This document shows, one piece after another, positions 195-31,145 of a stretch of DNA of 64,000 nt. Positions within the stretch are counted from its first letter, which is position 1. Each line of letters opens with the position of its first letter. Position numbers and translations under genes: made by a program. This DNA comes from an uncultured Candidatus Saccharibacteria bacterium. GTDB taxonomy: Bacteria > Patescibacteriota > Doudnabacteria > UBA920. The stretch lies in assembly GCA_964600695.1 (NCBI GenBank), contig CAZRKK010000002.1, forward strand, positions 115,900 through 179,899, in the 5' to 3' direction. Under the pieces are notes generated by a model. It saw nothing but the letters and a program-made list of their open reading frames with translations. It searched no databases and was not told the origin of the DNA.

Positions 195-935
195 ATGTAT
201 GAAAAAGAACTTCAAAATTTAGGGCTTTCCGAAAAAGAAGCCAAGGTTTACACCACCGCTTTAGAGCTTGGTGCAGACACAGTTCAGAATATTGCCAAGC
301 AATCCGGCATAAACCGTGCAACTACTTATGTACAAATCGACTCATTAACCGAGAAGGGTTTAATGAGTGAATTCGATAAGGGCAAAAAAACCTATTATGT
401 TGCCGAGTCACCAAACCGTTTAAAGAATTTACTATCTTCAATCGAAAAGGAGTTGGAAATAAAGAAAACAGAAGCAGGTACAATTATTCCTGGTCTTTTA
501 TCTTTATTTGAAGGAATGGGTGATCGTCCAAAAGTTAGATTTTTTGAAGGCATGGATGGGGCCACAGCTATGCGCGACGAATTCTTAAAGGGTAAGCATA
601 AGTTTATTTATGGCTTTATCAACTATGATAAATTATTTGAATTTTATCCAGATCAACAAACAGGTTATACAGATCTTCGTGCAAAGAAGGGGATTAAGAC
701 TAAAGTTTTCTATTCCAGTAAAGTGCCAGTAAAAGATGCGAATAGTAAGCAATTTTTAAGAGAAGCTAAATATATTTCTCCAAAAAAGATTGATATTTCA
801 GCTTCGGTCACTCTTTCTGGAAATAAAATTGCTATCTCAACTTACTCAAAGAATCCGACTAGCGTAGTAATCGAAAGTGAAATTATGGCTAAAACCTTTG
901 TTTCTATCTTCGAATATTTTTGGTCAATTAGTTAA
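195..935 (+). CDS. TrmB-family sugar-responsive HTH transcriptional regulator
   Basis: The N-terminal wHTH (GLSEKEAKVYTTALELGADTVQNIAKQSGINRATTYVQIDSLTEKGL) is followed by a TrmB C-terminal-like domain. Confidence 0.6.
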   Translation: MYEKELQNLGLSEKEAKVYTTALELGADTVQNIAKQSGINRATTYVQIDSLTEKGLMSEFDKGKKTYYVAESPNRLKNLLSSIEKELEIKKTEAGTIIPGLLSLFEGMGDRPKVRFFEGMDGATAMRDEFLKGKHKFIYGFINYDKLFEFYPDQQTGYTDLRAKKGIKTKVFYSSKVPVKDANSKQFLREAKYISPKKIDISASVTLSGNKIAISTYSKNPTSVVIESEIMAKTFVSIFEYFWSIS

Positions 936-968
936 AAATACACTGAATTTACTAGGTTATTTAAAAAA

Positions 969-996
969 AACTGTCATACACTATTGACAGTTTTTA
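969..996 (+). terminator. rho-independent terminator after the trmB-like gene
   Basis: Hairpin ctgtca-tacactat-tgacag is followed by TTTTT. Confidence 0.6.
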
Positions 997-1012
997 GTTT
1001 TTATGATAATAT
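984..1012 (+). promoter_or_regulatory. sigma70 promoter (TTGACA, then an extended -10 TGaTAATAT)
   Basis: ttgacagtttttagtttttatgataatat precedes the micro-ORF transcription unit. Confidence 0.45.
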
Positions 1013-1066
1013 TACTCCGATTTAAACATCCGTTACGAGGAATCTAACTAGAGGAGGTTCATCAGT

Positions 1067-1087
1067 ATGACAGGTGGGAACTGGTAA
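1067..1087 (+). CDS. micro-ORF MTGGNW (6 aa) with a perfect SD
   Basis: GAGGAGG lies 7 nt upstream of ATG. The stop is immediately followed by the GC hairpin GGGGCC-ACGG-GGCCCC (1089-1104). Confidence 0.3.
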   Translation: MTGGNW

Positions 1088-1205
1088 GGGGGCCACGGGG
1101 CCCCAAACCCAACTACTATCTGGAGTAATAGACCCGAATCAAAACTAGATACTGGTAATGTGTGTAAGTCGAAAAACAGAAATAAACCAAAACGGAGGTA
1201 AGGAA

Positions 1206-1247
1206 ATGAAGAACTATATCAATTTCGGCGGCGACGTCGCGTGGTAA
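1206..1247 (+). CDS. micro-ORF MKNYINFGGDVAW (13 aa) with a strong SD
   Basis: GGAGGTAAGG lies 5 nt upstream of ATG. Like micro-ORF1 it ends in ...W-stop. Confidence 0.3.
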   Translation: MKNYINFGGDVAW

Positions 1248-1314
1248 GCTAAACCCGTAAAAACGGTTCAGCAGATAATTCTGCTCTGCAAAATCAACAA
1301 TATGTTGGTTACGA

Positions 1315-1377
1315 GCGTCAATCAAATGAGATCATGAAGCTATGCTTTGGAATCAAATGATTGACGCTTTTTATTTT
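1315..1377 (+). terminator. rho-independent terminator closing the ~360-nt micro-ORF transcript
   Basis: A 10-bp stem (gcgtcaatca / tgattgacgc) with a ~33-nt loop is followed by tttttatttt. Confidence 0.55.
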
Positions 1378-1495
1378 ACCTAAAAATTTTACCCATGTTT
1401 ATATAATAGTCATGCTATGGTATCATAAAATCCACGTGGTTTATCCTTTATTTAAGCCAATATTTAACTACTAGGAATATTTTTGTCATTAGGTC

Positions 1496-1523
1496 TTGAC
1501 AAAATAAATATTTCATGTATACT
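1496..1523 (+). promoter_or_regulatory. sigma70 promoter (TTGACA-16-TATACT) driving the GC-rich ORF-free segment
   Basis: TTGACA at 1496-1501 and TATACT at 1518-1523. Confidence 0.5.
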
Positions 1524-1529
1524 GAGTTG

Positions 1530-2990
1530 TAAGCTGAAATTACCAAAAACAAATAACACTTTTTTAACTCTCGTATTCACTCGTTACTGTAGCGGGAAGA
1601 ATAATTCTGGCAGGCGACTAGACTCTACGGGGTCAATAATCATATCAATGTTCGCCGCACAGAATACTGAGAATTATAAAGGGTGTTATAAGTGGCTGGT
1701 GTTTCGGCTTTTAAAATACTCAAAGCCTGTCTGCAGTGGAGACCATGCATACAAATAAAATTGATGTAATGGTTATCAGCTTACTCCATTTGTAGACAGC
1801 CTGGCGGAAATTGAATTATTTCATTTTTTGCCGGACTGTCTACAACAGACAAAAATATAAAAAGGTTAGCTAGTGTGTGTCTAGCAGTTTACCAAGCGTT
1901 GACCAACTATCCTAGGATATGTCCGCAAAAACTAAACCCACTACACACAAAATTTTTAAGGAGGGGTATTTATCAGCACAATACTCCTAAGCAATCGATT
2001 GGCAAGAGGCCAACGACCCTGGAAATTTACCTGGCAGGGTAAGTTTCCAAAGCTTCGCTACTATGCGGTAGCAGCGGTTTACTGAATTGCCTGTGGAGCA
2101 ATTTTGTTAAATCGTAAACAGTAAGCGTGATGGATGGCCTGACCACAAAGGCTGCCATGTGCTGTTCCCGCCCGAACTTCTAGTTTGGGCTTCTATCCGA
2201 GAACATTACAAGTTAGTGTTCTCAGAGTGAATAAACTAATTCCTGTTCGCAACTCCTTGGCAGAAATTTATATCTAAATATTTGGATCTAAATTTCCGCC
2301 TTGGAGAGCGCGATAGCAGAGTAATCTGTGATAGGTGATACGTCTTAAACACAACGTATTGCCCGGGATTCGCCCGAAATCTCCACAAACTTGGATCCGC
2401 TGAAGAAGCCTAAGCAACTTCTACGCTCAGCCTTACAAGTTTGCCCAGAGAGTTTGGCGACTCTCGAAGGGAATTAGATGATGATTTGGCTCTAGGGCAT
2501 AAGCACCCCGACGAGTATTTGTTTTCCTTGGAAAGCATTTGGCCGCCAAGCCCAAAGAATCGGAAAGTTGGTCCTCACCTGGTCGCTTGCCGCAAGCAAG
2601 TCCAGCCTGAGGAAGTCTCATTACCAACAATGTGTCGCTAAACCATAGGAAAACAATGGTTGAAGGGCAAATATGAGAATAGGTCATGAAGCGTTGAGCC
2701 ATGCCGTAAACCTTTCTTCGGAAGGGAGAAAAACGGACTCGGGAATGCCTCCTGAGTACAGCGAAAGCCCTGATCCGGCCAGTAACTGTAATAAGCTTCA
2801 TAAAATCCTTCGGGATGACTGAAACGGTTGTTAGTGACTGCTTCGCAAGAAGTGTGGAAACTAACGGGTTAAAAGGAGCAGCGGTTACCATGCCGAGATG
2901 AAAATGTCTCGGTTAGCGCCGAGAAAAATCTGTTCCAAGAAAAAGATATTTGTCTTAGTCTTTTTCAAAAATCTCTTTAGGAGGAGAATT
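1530..2990 (+). ncRNA. candidate large structured non-coding RNA or intron-like element (unclassified)
   Basis: About 1.45 kb with GC near 50% in a ~36% GC genome. No ORF longer than 152 aa in any frame, and none with an SD. Many GC-rich nested hairpins (e.g. GAGAAC...GUUCUC at 2199-2223, GGCAGAAAUUU...AAAUUUCCGCC at 2258-2298). It has its own promoter. Confidence 0.35.
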
Positions 2991-2994
2991 TATT

Positions 2995-3261
2995 ATGAAA
3001 GTTATTTCGTTGTCCGCACTGAGTGCGGAGAAGCGAGTTGCCATCGCGGCGGCTCGGGTGACTGGAACGAATCCAGTCGTAGTCGGTAACTTTTGCACGC
3101 GGTGCAAATGTTGCGGACGCAACCAGCCGATCAAGGGGTTTGCCCCGGATCCGGCTCGGAAGCTCCGTGGGGTGGTGTGTGCACACTGTGCACAGCTGCG
3201 GACTCCGCGCTTGAGCCGTAACTCAGGCAAACAGAGAGATGTAACTCTGCAAAAAATTTAG
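2995..3261 (+). CDS. small Cys-rich (zinc-ribbon-like) protein, 88 aa
   Basis: Perfect SD AGGAGG lies 8 nt before ATG. Motifs CTRCKCC and CAHC are present. The gene is GC-rich. Confidence 0.5.
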   Translation: MKVISLSALSAEKRVAIAAARVTGTNPVVVGNFCTRCKCCGRNQPIKGFAPDPARKLRGVVCAHCAQLRTPRLSRNSGKQRDVTLQKI

Positions 3262-3597
3262 GTTTAAGTATTGTACCTTGAAACATAAACAATACATTCT
3301 TTTTTGAAAAGAGAAGTTCACTTGTCTTTTCAAAATTGAAAGTTTAGATACAAATCTTGTGGGGGTCTATGATAAAAATAATATTTCTCGGCGCTAGCGC
3401 TGGCGGAGCTATTGGTTAGCTCAGATCTAAATTAAAATATGTTTTTATATGGCAGTTTATTTATCTGCGTCCGGGAAGGATTCAAATAATTAAACTGTGT
3501 ATATCTGCATTCATGTGTTGTCGACATTTTTGCATACTATTAGGCCTATAGTATGAGTCGATGGAGTACAACATATAAAAACATATTGTCGCTTTAA

Positions 3598-3624
3598 GCT
3601 CGATTAATTTCGAGCATCTTTTTT
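3598..3624 (+). terminator. rho-independent terminator
   Basis: gctcga-ttaatt-tcgagc is followed by atcTTTTTT. Confidence 0.55.
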
Positions 3625-3654
3625 AGAACAGAATCCTGATTGTGTTTTGAAAAA

Positions 3655-3804
3655 GGGGATGACAGGCTTTCGACAGAAGACTAGCTTGGTTATGAAAGTA
3701 GGGTAAAACGTCTTTGATTTGAACCTGCGTGCAGTCGCAAGACTGTTGGATCTAATTGAGATTTTTCGTTCTGGATCCGGGTTCGAATCCCGGCATCTCC
3801 ACCA
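3655..3804 (+). ncRNA. tmRNA-like (ssrA-like) tRNA-like element, 150 nt, with no recognisable tag ORF
   Basis: The 5' end GGGGAUGACAGGCUUUCGACAG carries the tmRNA GGNUUCGAC motif. The 3' end GGAUCCGGGUUCGAAUCCCGGCAUCUCCACCA gives a T-arm and CCA. The 7-bp acceptor stem GGGGAUG / CAUCUCC pairs fully with one G-U. Confidence 0.5.
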
Positions 3805-3821
3805 CTTCTTTAGGAGGAAAT

Positions 3822-4103
3822 ATGAAAATATTTAGTTACTTGTTTTGGGCAGTATTTGTACCGTTTTGGTTTGTTGCAGTGGTTGTGCCGTTTTTTTCTG
3901 TGATGTTTGGGTTTGATTCAGTGATGAAGCACAACACTGATCGCACATGGACCTTGTACGGTTTATGGGTCATGGACTCAGTCATTGCAGACCGGTACTA
4001 CATCTTTATGGTGGCTACTGCATTTGTGATGGCGATTCTGTTTAGGATGGAATGGGTATTTAGTTCCAAGCTAAATAAAAAGGAGCGATTGAATCGTCAA
4101 TGA
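3822..4103 (+). CDS. small polytopic membrane protein (93 aa)
   Basis: SD AGGAGG precedes ATG at 3822 and the protein has 3 hydrophobic helices. The ORF-track start at 3756 lies inside the tmRNA-like element and is rejected. Confidence 0.55.
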   Translation: MKIFSYLFWAVFVPFWFVAVVVPFFSVMFGFDSVMKHNTDRTWTLYGLWVMDSVIADRYYIFMVATAFVMAILFRMEWVFSSKLNKKERLNRQ

Positions 4104-4192
4104 TCGCGTGGGCTCAACAGCGCCTGGAAACAGAAGCTGTTTTTTTATACCCTTCAAAATGATATAATTCAGGAGTAATTAATCTTGTATAT

Positions 4193-5464
4193 ATGGAACT
4201 AGGACCCCGACAATCTGAATATTTAGGTAAGCAATTTAAAACATTTAATGAGTTGGGCCATAAAAAATTTATGGAAGGCCGGGATTTTGATATTGCTGTC
4301 ATCAAGGAATTTTCTATAGAGTACCTTCGAAAAAATCATAAAAAGAACGAAGGTAATAATGGTGTGATTTTTAAACTAGAACTTCAGGATCCTAACAATG
4401 AGAATGAAACTGTTGAGTATGCTGGTAAGTTGCTAAAGGTGGGGAGTTACGAAGATTTAAAAGCGGAATATGATAATCAAATTGCTGCTTATGAAATTTT
4501 AGAAGAAGAAATAGCAAATGGTGCAGACCCTTTGAATTATAGTAAAATCCCTAGACCGTGTTTTTGTTTTCATCTTGAGTTAGATGATGAATTGAAAAAG
4601 CATCTTCAAGAAGAGGGGATTAAAAGCTCTGGCGATACACAAGGACTTCTTTTAATGGATTGGATTGATGGAGAGGATGTCGCCACTCATCTCTTTAAGG
4701 AAGCATTAAAACGTAAAGAAAGTAGATTCTTAGACACTATCAAGCCAGGAGATTTTAATCAGTTACATCAGGCTGTCGGATTAGAGTTTGAGTTTGCTAA
4801 GCCTGGTGGCAAAGCTACTCGAGCAGGTGATAAAATATTCGAAGAACGAAAAGTTGCAGCTGATAATGAATCTAAAATTTATAAGTTTTTAAAGAAGAGT
4901 GGTTATATTTTTCCTAAAAATACTCTTGAACAAATTCGAAATACTCTAGACTTGTTTAGCAGTAAAGGCTTAGAGATGTGGGATAGTCACGCTCGCAATG
5001 TAATGTTGGATCCAGAAGGTGATCGACCATACTTAATCGACTTTGCTCCTCAAAAGAAGCAACTTGGCGGCGAAGCAGCAACCTTAGACCCTTATGTTTT
5101 GATAAGACAGTTAGAAAGTCTTACTACAACTCCACAAGAAGATCATCAGGCTGAAATAGAATCTAAGTTTACTGAATGGGACGCTAATTACCAAAAGAAA
5201 ACCCAAGACCCACGTTGGGTAGCTGCTTTTATAAATAAAGCACCAACTGGTGAGAAATTCCTAAAACATGCCCAGTACGAAATTGCTAGTGGTGTGGATG
5301 AAGATCGTGTGCAGGGAAATATTTACGCCTTATTTTATAAAGCTAATCAAAATGAGATTAGTCCAGAAGCAGTCTTAGGTTTGTTAACAGAGTTATCTAG
5401 CAAAGAAAATCTTCCTTGGAAAAAAGCTAAAATAGATTTAGCAATAAAAAAAGCGGGTAAATAA
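4193..5464 (+). CDS. atypical protein-kinase-like (PKL/APH-fold) protein
   Basis: A beta3 Lys region (AGKLLKV), a hinge (LLLMDWIDGEDV), a catalytic loop (WDSHARNVML) and a DFG-like IDFA are all present. Confidence 0.45.
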   Translation: MELGPRQSEYLGKQFKTFNELGHKKFMEGRDFDIAVIKEFSIEYLRKNHKKNEGNNGVIFKLELQDPNNENETVEYAGKLLKVGSYEDLKAEYDNQIAAYEILEEEIANGADPLNYSKIPRPCFCFHLELDDELKKHLQEEGIKSSGDTQGLLLMDWIDGEDVATHLFKEALKRKESRFLDTIKPGDFNQLHQAVGLEFEFAKPGGKATRAGDKIFEERKVAADNESKIYKFLKKSGYIFPKNTLEQIRNTLDLFSSKGLEMWDSHARNVMLDPEGDRPYLIDFAPQKKQLGGEAATLDPYVLIRQLESLTTTPQEDHQAEIESKFTEWDANYQKKTQDPRWVAAFINKAPTGEKFLKHAQYEIASGVDEDRVQGNIYALFYKANQNEISPEAVLGLLTELSSKENLPWKKAKIDLAIKKAGK

Positions 5465-5740: not shown

Positions 5741-5770
5741 TTGACAACTTTAGTCAACCCCTGCTATAAT
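5741..5770 (+). promoter_or_regulatory. sigma70 promoter (TTGACA-18-TATAAT) of the rplJL operon
   Basis: The -35 and -10 hexamers match consensus exactly. Confidence 0.6.
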
Positions 5771-5777
5771 CCTATTA

Positions 5778-6033
5778 ACTAAATATCCCAAGACAGTTGG
5801 TGGCCAAAAGCCTTAAAATAGCCTAAAAACTAAACCCACCGAGGAACAAAACCAAGTCGCACCAATTATAGATTGGTAGACGAGGTAATTTGTGGCTCGG
5901 AAACTTATATAAGTCCGAGTTTTATTGTTCTAAAAACAGTTTATGCCGCGGGGCATGGCAGGATTATTTAGCAGAAAGGTCGAATTACCAGCCGTGGAAT
6001 TAACCACGTGATTGGATCCTAAAAGGAAAAATT
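5778..6033 (+). promoter_or_regulatory. ribosomal-protein L10 (rplJ) leader, the likely L10(L12)4 autoregulatory structure
   Basis: A ~255-nt untranslated leader lies between a consensus promoter and rplJ. This position is conserved across bacteria, but the structure itself was not verified. Confidence 0.45.
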
Positions 6034-8267: not shown

Positions 8268-10059
8268 AACAAATTCTGGGGCACTAGCTGGGTTGTCACA
8301 AAAGTTGGGTGACTATCAGTACCTTGCTCCGTTGCTAGGAGTACTAATTGTATTATTAGTTGGCATAGGTGTTTGGTATTGGCAAAAATATAATGCTTCT
8401 ACTTTGACCCCAGGTGGTTATGGTTACTACTTTGATGGTCAACAGCCTCCGCTTCCAGAAACACCAGTTTTACCCGAGGGAAGTTATTATGTACCGACTA
8501 CAGTAGAAAATCCAGACTCCTCTGGAGCTCCTAAAGCAAATACTACTGTGCAGTGGAAGTCTGCCGCAAAGCTAGAAGATATGGGTCTAATTAAAGGTTT
8601 ACAAGAAGGTTATGATGAAGTTGAATATTACTATCTAGGAAACCGTGGTGCCAACAAGATTATTTTAGCTCAGGTCCCAGCAATGGATCCTGGTGGGCCA
8701 AGTATTTTCTTATTTGAGCAAACAAGTAAGGGTTATACTTTCATGTCCTTAATGTCCAGCCAGTATTTTTACAGAGGACCAAATGACCCAATGGGTAGTG
8801 GTTATTACGCCATTAGTCCATTAGTCACAAGTTCTGATACTAAGAGCTATTACTACGGTATTGTGGGTCCTTCGAAATTTACTTATAACGGCTCCACTTT
8901 AGAACAATCATATTTAAGACCATTAAGTATGTTCGAATTGTACCGAGAGTCTGCAGTGAAAGATTTGGATACAACAGTAACTAAAGTCGCTACACTTAAG
9001 GATGGTGAGTTGTATATTTTTCAAAGTAACACTTTCGTGGACGAAACTACACCAAATCAAGAAAGATTCATTGCTCGCCGATATATACTAAAATTACCAA
9101 GTGGTTTATACACTAATTATAATGTGACTTATGGTTTCTTTTCGGATGACAGAGTTCCAAATATCACTTGGACAGACGGGACAAAGAATACGGATATTTA
9201 TAGCCAAGCTGCATCTTTAAGCGGTTGTGGTTCACCAGGGGCATACATTGTTCCGGCCAGAGATATCTCTGGAGATGTAAAAATTGCTGGAACGACTAGC
9301 ACTAATAATGTTATTTACGAATTTAATGATGTTAAAGATAAAACTTTAGAGTATTTCTATAAGTTACAAGGTGGGCAGCGTTATAATAGAGAGACAAATC
9401 AATTTGAACCCATGTCTATTTCTGAATGGTACAAGCATCATCCAGTAATAGCAATCAAAAATAGTGCAGGGGATTATGTGCTCATGACTAATGAAGCTTA
9501 TGGTCTTGCAGCAGAATGTGGTAAGCCTGTTATCTATTTATACCCAACTCAGCCAACCGCAGTTTCTGTTAAAGTAGGCGCAGACGTAACTGTTTCCGAA
9601 CCAGCTTATAATCAGGGTTGGAAAGTTATTGCTAAGCCTAATGGCTCGTTAATTAATAGTGATGGTTTAAGTTATGATTCATTGTTCTGGGAAGGCTTAG
9701 GCGATGGTCAGTATCCTTCTATTAGAGCCGGGTTTGTTGTAGCTCAAAAAGACCTTGATAAAACTATTACAGAGCATTTAAAAGCTCAGGGTTTGAATGC
9801 CAAGGAATCTCAAGACTTTAAAGATTTTTGGATGTCCAGATTACCAAAAACTCCTTATGTTCGTCTAACTTGGTTTACAACTGCTCAGATGGACAGCTTA
9901 GCTCCTTTGTACGTGACTCCTAAGCCAGATACTGTAATTCGTGTGTTCCTAGATTTTGCAGGTATGAATGAGTTTGCATCTATTCCTCAGCAAAAGTTAA
10001 CTGCTGTTCCTCGACAAGGTTTCACTCTTGTAGAGTGGGGTGGACTATTAAAAAAGTAA
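8254..10059 (+). CDS. hypothetical membrane-anchored extracytoplasmic protein (601 aa)
   Basis: One N-terminal TM is followed by a large Tyr/Gly/Asn-rich ectodomain. Confidence 0.5.
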   Translation: MNENKTNSGALAGLSQKLGDYQYLAPLLGVLIVLLVGIGVWYWQKYNASTLTPGGYGYYFDGQQPPLPETPVLPEGSYYVPTTVENPDSSGAPKANTTVQWKSAAKLEDMGLIKGLQEGYDEVEYYYLGNRGANKIILAQVPAMDPGGPSIFLFEQTSKGYTFMSLMSSQYFYRGPNDPMGSGYYAISPLVTSSDTKSYYYGIVGPSKFTYNGSTLEQSYLRPLSMFELYRESAVKDLDTTVTKVATLKDGELYIFQSNTFVDETTPNQERFIARRYILKLPSGLYTNYNVTYGFFSDDRVPNITWTDGTKNTDIYSQAASLSGCGSPGAYIVPARDISGDVKIAGTTSTNNVIYEFNDVKDKTLEYFYKLQGGQRYNRETNQFEPMSISEWYKHHPVIAIKNSAGDYVLMTNEAYGLAAECGKPVIYLYPTQPTAVSVKVGADVTVSEPAYNQGWKVIAKPNGSLINSDGLSYDSLFWEGLGDGQYPSIRAGFVVAQKDLDKTITEHLKAQGLNAKESQDFKDFWMSRLPKTPYVRLTWFTTAQMDSLAPLYVTPKPDTVIRVFLDFAGMNEFASIPQQKLTAVPRQGFTLVEWGGLLKK

Positions 10060-30994: not shown

Positions 30995-31145
30995 ACTAAC
31001 AATATCAAGAGTGCGGTTAGGGAACCAGCCCTGCGATCCGCCAGCAACCTAAGTCGTCATAGACTCAAGGTGCTAAGTCTGGCCCTGCTTACAGGGAAAG
31101 ATATCAATTTAAAATATCCTTCTCTTACAGCAAGAAAGGATATTT
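30995..31145 (+). promoter_or_regulatory. SAM-I (S-box) riboswitch with a terminator-type expression platform upstream of metK
   Basis: AUCAAGAGUGCGGUUAGGGAACCAGCCCUGCGAUCCGCCAGCAACC...AAGGUGCUAAGUCUGGCC matches S-box conserved blocks. It is followed by aatatcctt...aaggatattTTTTT (sequestering an AAAGGA RBS). An extended -10 tgTTATAAT sits at 30974-30981. Confidence 0.8.

Follow-up and report, generated by a model that had tools for sequence, protein, structure and literature searches.

Evidence for an uncatalogued modular structured RNA in the chromosome of a Candidatus Saccharibacteria bacterium

Introduction

What does an episymbiotic bacterium encode in a block of almost 1.5 kb that contains no credible gene? 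The block in question occupies positions 1496–2990 of a 64,000-nt stretch of contig CAZRKK010000002.1 (assembly GCA_964600695.1, positions 115,900–179,899; hereafter, the window) and lies in the sole gap (936–4192) in otherwise dense coding. The relatives reached through the TrmB-like gene upstream of the block identify the host as a Candidatus Saccharibacteria, i.e., a member of the Candidate Phyla Radiation (CPR)/Patescibacteria; the locus is chromosomal. A first-pass annotation, made from the sequence without database searches, had proposed that the block specifies an undescribed large structured non-coding RNA (ncRNA). The comparative analysis presented here supports this proposal: no Rfam family, protein, phage or plasmid explains the block, and covariation is found in its relatives. 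We are highly confident that a real, conserved, structured ncRNA that is not in Rfam is encoded here. That the region 1484–2966, together with the working proposed below, is a separately promoted unit making an uncatalogued modular structured ncRNA from the plus strand is, in our judgment, likely.

It is seldom that a bacterial ncRNA of more than about 400 nt combines this length with an intricate conserved structure. The few known classes (RNase P, group I and group II introns, OLE, GOLLD, ROOL and HEARO/omega RNAs) are ribozymes, guide RNAs or unexpected RNA assemblies. In the reduced genomes of Saccharibacteria, which are ultra-small episymbionts, there is hardly room for 1.5 kb of non-coding DNA.

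Two conserved domains and an exchangeable cassette

Relatives of the locus were reached through two neighboring genes. An 88-aa open reading frame (ORF) downstream of the block led to 12 Logan contigs. With the TrmB-like gene, five Candidatus Saccharibacteria genomes were reached, and with its orthologues nine more loci. In the loci found in this manner (denoted by L numbers), two domains, A and B, were located using blastn and nhmmer. The block is modular: the two domains are conserved independently of each other, with a swappable cassette between them.

Domain A, a 5' structured RNA of ~320 nt (1529–1849, plus strand; nhmmer matches in 14 loci), is present, together with the promoter, wherever the TrmB orthologue is 59% identical or more (14 lineages), and always has the TrmB gene on one side and the L10 operon on the other. 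No element adjoins the TrmB orthologues of 53% identity or less (L027–L030). Domain B (2191–2966, plus strand), the larger structured RNA, with ~780 nt and no fewer than 30 helices, was detected by nhmmer in nine of the 12 lineages that have enough downstream sequence, and is missing in L015, L025 and L023/L001–L004. L023 is a close relative, with 95% identity in the L10 region, and yet a GC-rich ORFan of 310–315 aa replaces domain B. This coiled-coil-like ORFan occupies the domain B position at 325–1272 in L001 and at 4812–5759 in L023. Both domains are present in the complete genome CP064996.1, and the sequence 3' of domain B varies between lineages.

In the window, the middle cassette (1850–2169, plus strand) contains no intact ORF and is unique to this genome, with no counterpart in any locus. 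Its Shine-Dalgarno sequence AAGGAGG (1958–1964) is followed by no ATG, GTG or TTG at the right spacing, only by an ATC at 1972, which would open a 37-codon basic, Trp-rich frame. The equivalent cassette in L005, L011, L014, L016, L018, L019, L021 and L023 encodes a conserved basic peptide of 57–62 aa, the ORF for which starts 7–20 nt past domain A and lacks a Shine-Dalgarno sequence; in L015, a related 62-aa ORF is located further downstream. The boundary between the cassette and domain B is marked by a junction hairpin read from the sequence, GCCCGAAC-UUCUA-GUUUGGGC (2170–2190, plus strand), which is conserved in L001, L011 and L014, even where other cargo comes next.

In relatives, other conserved small ORFs are also found between the two domains, namely those for a 45-aa basic protein (…RRKWKSPWHRH…; L019 3250–3387, L022 8742–8879) and for a 97-aa Cys-containing basic protein with the same WHRH motif (L014 11155–11448 and, as part of 9018–9467, L020). 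Neither these nor the other small cargo proteins of all loci showed any significant match in Pfam, PHROGs or NCBIfam.

Covariation and conservation of the RNA structure

The first-pass annotation had suggested that homologous loci be collected and examined for covariation; such loci exist in the Saccharibacteria clade and show strong helix-level covariation in both domains. The structure of domain B was predicted with RNAalifold from an alignment (A5) of eight sequences, which represent about seven independent lineages and reach down to 72% identity. It comprises 205 pairs in 34 helices, with 65 compensatory pairs vs. 7–10 in slid controls, and standard pairs fill 97.1% of the cells, compared to 35–47% when the partners are slid by one to three columns. 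None of 500 column shuffles reached the observed value on any of five measures, among which those based on pair counts yield false positives least readily according to the tool's own calibration. For domain A (alignment A6, 13 sequences), 78 pairs in 10 helices include 30 compensatory ones vs. 4–12 in slid controls, 96.4% of the cells are paired vs. 39–44%, and again 0 of 500 shuffles reached the observed value.

Domain A is closed by an invariant helix formed by GUAAGCUGA (1529–1537) and UCAGCUUAC (1776–1784), has a cUACGg tetraloop among its inner helices, and ends in a 24-bp terminal hairpin (1790–1815/1820–1845) with eight covarying pairs. Its fold is better than that of shuffled sequences (z = −8.3, 1528–1853).

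In domain B, the loops include GNRA tetraloops (GUAA/GCAA), UUCG loops that are swapped for GNRA in relatives, and two loops containing UAAGCA. Entire stem-loops are exchanged with position and length kept, e.g., AUCC-UUCG-GGAU for GGCA-GAAA-UGCC; likewise, CUCGG-UUAGCG-CCGAG is replaced by CUUGGG-UCAGCG-CCCAAG, and a GCAA-capped helix by a GAAA-capped one. One hairpin (columns 346–389) ranges from 12 to ~45 nt. Long single-stranded blocks, such as CCCGAAAUCUCCAC and GGCCGCCAAGC, are invariant.

The three long hairpins that the first-pass annotation had singled out in this part of the block are all real. The one at 2199–2223 corresponds to the covariation-supported helix 2197–2208/2214–2225, that at 2258–2298 lies inside the helix 2253–2275/2284–2306, which has 11 covarying pairs, and that at 2746–2790 overlaps the helices 2738–2756 and 2757–2790. 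The long-range pairing between 2153–2159 and 2432–2438, also put forward there, found no support: its 5' arm lies in the cassette and is not conserved in any relative, and the covarying partners are instead 2428–2431 with 2399–2402 and 2436–2443 with 2386–2393.

Two further pairings were discarded. The RNAalifold pairing 2185–2188/2819–2822 is probably an artefact, the alignment beginning inside the junction hairpin. A 16-nt inverted repeat (2914–2929/3381–3396, 94% complementary), which connects a 3' stretch of domain B with a downstream site and brackets the 88-aa ORF, was rejected as a feature of the family, being confined to the window/L005 lineage.

The RNA is assigned to the plus strand because G-U exceeds A-C approximately 10–18-fold in both domains (201 vs. 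11 in domain B, 107 vs. 10 in domain A). In addition, the GNRA and UNCG loops are correct on the plus strand only, and the fold z for domain B (2183–2966) is −4.9 on the plus strand vs. −3.4 on the minus strand.

The identity of domain B to the window is 86% in L022, 83% in L020, 75% in L019 and 72% in L021, the TrmB and L10 genes there being 69–77% identical. In L011, domain B is nearly invariant, and the adjacent ORF is 73% identical at the protein level. Judging from these identities, domain B is conserved equally to or more than the flanking protein genes. The GC content of domain B is 45–47% in every homologue, with 39–46% in the surrounding loci; such steadiness is expected of a structure under selection and not of unameliorated foreign DNA.

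A conserved promoter embedded in a palindrome

Upstream of domain A, a sigma-70-type promoter, TTGACA-16-TATACT (1496–1523, plus strand), agrees with the consensus at 11 of 12 positions. Promoter-like matches number 12 in total vs. 7.8 ± 2.9 expected, so that a single match alone is not significant. The element promoter is kept in all 14 homologous loci, with TTGACA invariant and a −10 box of the form TAnnnT, and the distance from the −10 box to the 5' end of the RNA, GUAAGCUGA, is always 5–7 nt. Between relatives, conservation starts just 5' of the −35 box, at a conserved TGTCA arm. The block appears to be promoted separately because the upstream unit closes at a strong terminator, i.e., a hairpin (1314–1368) followed by a T-run. 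Thus, the consensus promoter and separate promotion claimed in the first-pass annotation both held up. From the conserved promoter and the G-U strand asymmetry, a discrete transcript is predicted.

The −35 box overlaps the palindrome TGTCA-N8-TGACA (1484–1501), a candidate operator, the arms of which extend to a perfect palindrome TTTTGTCA-N8-TGACAAAA (1481–1504). The palindrome core occurs twice in the 64 kb, vs. 0.05 occurrences expected, and each copy overlaps a TTGACA −35 box. The other copy (972–989) overlaps that of an upstream promoter (984–1012) and is conserved right after the TrmB gene in relatives. Related loci retain both copies 3' of the TrmB-like gene, and in L022 the arms of the copy at the element promoter co-vary (TCTGTCA/TGACAGA).

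The constant upstream neighbor of the element is a gene for a TrmB-family helix-turn-helix regulator (195–935, plus strand; Pfam TrmB, E = 1.3e-13), the orthologues of which, 59–99% identical, immediately precede domain A in every locus that has this domain. Archaeal TrmB proteins are sugar-responsive regulators that bind palindromes. Because the −35 box sits in a palindrome, a dimeric helix-turn-helix protein would be its natural ligand, and the product of the adjacent TrmB-family gene is the obvious candidate. The placement of the palindrome suggests control by this regulator.

The promoter under the first palindrome copy (TTGACA-17-TAATAT with an upstream TG) would drive a second ORF-poor transcription unit (984–1378), directly upstream of the element. 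Over ~350 nt, this unit contains GC-rich hairpins, a 13-codon ORF (1207–1248, MKNYINFGGDVAW) behind a strong Shine-Dalgarno sequence, and the terminator described above. Its sequence is not conserved in L016, where other tiny ORFs hold this position.

Coding capacity and base composition of the block

The absence of a credible ORF, noted in the first-pass annotation, was substantiated. On the plus strand of 1496–2990, no ORF exceeds 91 aa, and on the minus strand there is one of 152 aa (2433–2891). Each frame contains 22–29 stops. A recoded genetic code that would conceal an ORF can be ruled out because TAA, TAG and TGA are all present in each of the six frames. The ORFs of the block, including the 152-aa one, have no match in Pfam. 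Among 5.8 billion proteins, the 152-aa translation belongs to only two Logan clusters, which differ in length and both stem from gene prediction on this DNA in related contigs. The longest open frame switches strand and frame between homologues, and the 152-aa ORF is not conserved; hence, it was rejected as a real protein.

The contrast in base composition is weaker than first described. The block had been put at nearly 50% GC in a genome of ~36%; the computed values are 42.9% for 1496–2990 and 38.6% for the window. The first ~330 nt, at 38.3%, do not differ from the genome, domain B (2183–2966) is at 45.4%, and 50% is reached only in 2751–3250, which takes in an ORF of 56% GC (2995–3261).

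Comparison with known RNA families

None of the 4227 models of Rfam 15 matched the block, either at the gathering threshold or at E ≤ 10 with lax filters (900–4200 searched), which is the outcome that the first-pass annotation had left to such a search to decide. Nothing was found over the homologous blocks in relatives either, and the most divergent homologue (L019 2600–4500) had no match at E ≤ 10. The nearest Rfam matches are a transfer-messenger RNA (tmRNA)-like gene (3655–3804) and the L10 leader (5769–5935). Exact-motif scans with the conserved cores in metagenome and viral collections yielded nothing, and the literature searches turned up no described large RNA in Saccharibacteria or CPR. 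Ribosomal RNA (16S or other), tRNA and RNase P were rejected as explanations by Rfam and ARAGORN. With respect to tmRNA, nothing in 1496–2990 matches, the sole match being the separate 150-nt gene just mentioned.

We consider this RNA a new family, the closest known counterparts of which are the large ornate bacterial ncRNAs GOLLD, ROOL and OLE, with a resemblance in kind only. Like GOLLD and ROOL, it spans several hundred nt with many helices, GNRA-type loops and no coding capacity, is encoded in a variable region near a tRNA-like gene, as those RNAs often are, and is patchy among relatives. By cryo-electron microscopy, GOLLD and ROOL are reported to assemble into RNA-only homo-oligomers (PMC12286853). 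However, the window block and its L019 homologue match neither covariance model at E ≤ 10, no viral or prophage context was found for the window RNA, and its host is a CPR bacterium. Furthermore, the window RNA consists of two parts, its 5' domain is universal, its ORF cassette can be swapped and its promoter bears a predicted operator; we know of no description of these features for GOLLD or ROOL. This combination of a bipartite architecture with a universal promoter-proximal domain, a swappable small-ORF cassette, a predicted operator at the promoter and a CPR host appears to be new.

OLE is a chromosomal, highly conserved multi-helix RNA of ~600 nt that forms a ribonucleoprotein with small partner proteins encoded nearby. 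Domain B similarly lies among genes for small basic proteins. In contrast to OLE, the OLE model does not match, there are no OapA/B/C-like neighbors and the small proteins have no family matches, no partner ORF is conserved with domain B, and this domain is dispensable in close relatives.

Domain A also invites comparison with structured leaders and dual-function RNAs (ribosomal-protein, T-box and RNAIII/SgrS-type). It is promoter-proximal in all 14 loci and is mostly followed by the 57–62-aa ORF (7–20 nt after domain A in eight lineages). Because this small ORF comes directly after domain A in most lineages, the transcript would join a structured RNA with a short coding segment. Unlike typical leaders, domain A, at ~320 nt and 10 helices, is much larger and has no Rfam match, the ORF that follows it is replaceable and is missing in the window genome, and no terminator/anti-terminator pair or Shine-Dalgarno-sequestering alternative structure is evident.

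Alternative explanations

A mobile or phage-derived island inserted beside the tmRNA-like gene could carry the RNA as cargo, in which case the RNA would serve this element and not the host, as proposed for prophage GOLLD/ROOL. Indeed, the TrmB gene and the tmRNA-like gene enclose a mosaic hot spot where the ORFan takes the place of domain B in L023 and the cassettes differ, the GC content is above that of the host, and tmRNA genes are classic integration sites. However, the locus showed neither an integrase or transposase nor direct repeats at its flanks, and four conserved motifs along with the 88-aa ORF have no match in 2.9 million viral contigs. A blastn comparison with phage and plasmid collections, envisaged in the first-pass annotation as a check on mobility, was likewise empty. 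Domain A and the promoter, moreover, are syntenic in every lineage, down to 59% TrmB identity. On balance, we regard such an island as unlikely. A mobile origin is, in any case, compatible with a separately promoted structured RNA and would leave the novelty of this RNA unchanged.

Alternatively, the entire 1.45 kb might be a very long structured 5' untranslated region (UTR), i.e., a cis leader, of the ORF that comes next. This ORF (2995–3261, plus strand) encodes an 88-aa basic, Cys-rich, zinc-ribbon-like protein (CxxCxCC…CxxC), and is preceded by a strong Shine-Dalgarno sequence, with the ATG right behind domain B. The block and the ORF have the same orientation, no canonical terminator separates them, and they are co-conserved in L005 and L011. 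Nevertheless, a pure 5' UTR is contradicted by the independence of domain B and the zinc-ribbon ORF in relatives: in L016, L019, L020, L021 and L022, domain B is found without this ORF and with unrelated cargo, whereas in L001–L004 and L023 the ORF is found without domain B. Next to domain B, the ORF is confined to the window/L005/L011 group, and it is much less well conserved than domain B. This explanation therefore appears improbable, and, as far as these loci indicate, the 88-aa ORF is not an obligate partner of the RNA.

The 88-aa ORF itself is lineage-specific cargo, for which 5.8 billion proteins yielded only three homologue clusters, each from SRA assemblies. It has no match in Pfam, PHROGs or NCBIfam and no relatives in the JGI metagenomes and IMG/VR, and its AlphaFold model is unusable (mean predicted local distance difference test score, 49.6).

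A third possibility is a highly divergent version of a known large ribozyme, a group I or group II intron or RNase P RNA, that was missed by the Rfam models. The Rfam model can fail to recognize divergent group I introns of Patescibacteria (PMC13011429), and domain B, being large, multi-helical and GNRA-rich, falls within the size range and structural complexity of these RNAs. Against this explanation, there was no match at E ≤ 10 with lax filters for the window or the divergent homologue, i.e., no catalytic core was detected by a model, and there is no split tRNA, rRNA or coding sequence around the block and no ORF for a reverse transcriptase, homing endonuclease or other intron-encoded protein. 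There would be no flanking exons because a conserved promoter belongs to the unit itself and the first helix lies at the predicted +1, the 5' end right after the promoter being GUAAGCUGA. RNase P RNA is incompatible with the absence of domain B from close relatives at this locus (L015, L023 and L025, the rest of those genomes being unsearched). A disguised known ribozyme is thus very improbable.

Finally, a decayed coding sequence or functionless foreign DNA, such as a GC-rich pseudogene, can be suspected from the moderately raised GC and the short nonsense ORFs on both strands, the 152-aa antisense one included, but is extremely improbable given the compensatory changes over ~40 helices, the conservation equal to or above that of neighboring genes, the protein homologues that are only spurious calls on the same DNA, and the inconstant strand and frame of the longest open frame.

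Downstream neighborhood

An A/U-rich 24-bp hairpin (3294–3343, plus strand; inverted repeat I2) follows the 88-aa ORF and could mark where the unit ends on its 3' side. This hairpin is shared by L005 and L011, and a similar sequence is seen in L016 on inspection; we infer termination here only tentatively, because there is no canonical T-run. Further downstream, there is a perfect 16-nt inverted repeat (3436–3451/3572–3587, spacing 120 nt), which may belong to another small RNA unit, and a canonical terminator (3598–3615) right before the tmRNA-like gene. The first-pass annotation had placed the block immediately upstream of a tRNA/tmRNA-like element; the gene in fact begins 665 nt downstream, with the 88-aa ORF and terminator-like hairpins in between.

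This miniature gene has counterparts in L016 (12619–12745), L015 (14625–14783), L023 (7758–7907) and L001 (2693–2842). All are 127–159 nt long, and at their tRNA-like 5' and 3' ends they score 51–61 bits with the Rfam tmRNA model. About 70–100 nt replace the ~314-nt middle of the model, which leaves no room for the usual pseudoknots. A possible short tag frame starts from a conserved GCG (ACSRKTVGSN* in the window, ALLRTANLVESA* in L015). ARAGORN called no tRNA or tmRNA in this region, the tmRNA-like gene included.

In L016 (12038–12054) and L020 (11126–11142), small cargo ORFs 3' of domain B are preceded by a conserved 5'-UTR-like motif, GGACTGATAAGGATCGC, followed by GGAGG and ATG. The ORFs behind this motif are weakly related (30% identical), and the window lacks the motif. 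A 423-aa ORF (4193–5464), located past the tmRNA-like gene and before the L10 operon and conserved in L005 and L016, shows faint kinase-like similarity (Bud32/Kdo kinase models, E ~1e-3 to 1e-2). Elsewhere in the window, the SAM-I riboswitch (30999–31107), like the L10 leader, is ordinary and scores above the Rfam gathering threshold.

Proposed function and implications

We propose the following working of the unit, each functional element of which (a cis role for domain A, a trans role for domain B, and operator control) is a tentative suggestion. Transcription would be gated by a dimeric DNA-binding protein, for which the TrmB-like regulator is the candidate, at the palindrome over the −35 box as well as at its twin 500 nt upstream; a repressor bound at the palindrome would switch the unit. 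Once transcription starts, domain A would form and serve as a cis-acting leader or platform for the cargo that follows. A role in cis is proposed because domain A is the only constant part between the promoter and the changing cargo and abuts a small ORF that has no Shine-Dalgarno sequence. Domain B would be a self-contained cargo, a folded RNA that acts in trans, given that its size, the number of helices and the invariant unpaired blocks are typical of scaffolds, ribozymes and self-assembling particles. Along the lines of OLE, ROOL or GOLLD, it might form a scaffold or ribonucleoprotein together with small basic proteins that the locus encodes, self-assemble, or act as a ribozyme.

Several observations weigh against this interpretation. 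The transcription start, the 3' end, the processing and the stability of the RNA are all predictions from sequence, and it is adjacency and palindromy only that would connect the operator to TrmB. The alignments are small and consist of related sequences (eight for domain B, from ~7 independent lineages, and 13 for domain A), and the structures were predicted on the same alignments that were used for the pair counts, which flatters the comparison with slid controls. The lineages that lack domain B (L015, L023/L001–L004 and L025) imply that it is not essential, and no protein partner is conserved with it in the compared loci. Given that no canonical terminator lies between the end of domain B (2966) and the 88-aa ORF, domain B may have a UTR role in the window genome.

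At its most ambitious, the proposal would make domain B the first representative of a class of large functional RNAs confined to CPR epibionts, either a ribozyme or a ROOL/GOLLD-type assembly, the synthesis of which is coupled, via domain A and the TrmB-type operator, to the nutritional or host-attachment state of the cell; we offer this as a speculation that is more doubtful than the individual roles suggested above. With an RNA of ~780 nt and a leader domain of ~320 nt, the locus offers a concrete target for RNA structural biology and CPR genetics, and the presence or absence of domain B among near-identical strains provides natural knock-outs.

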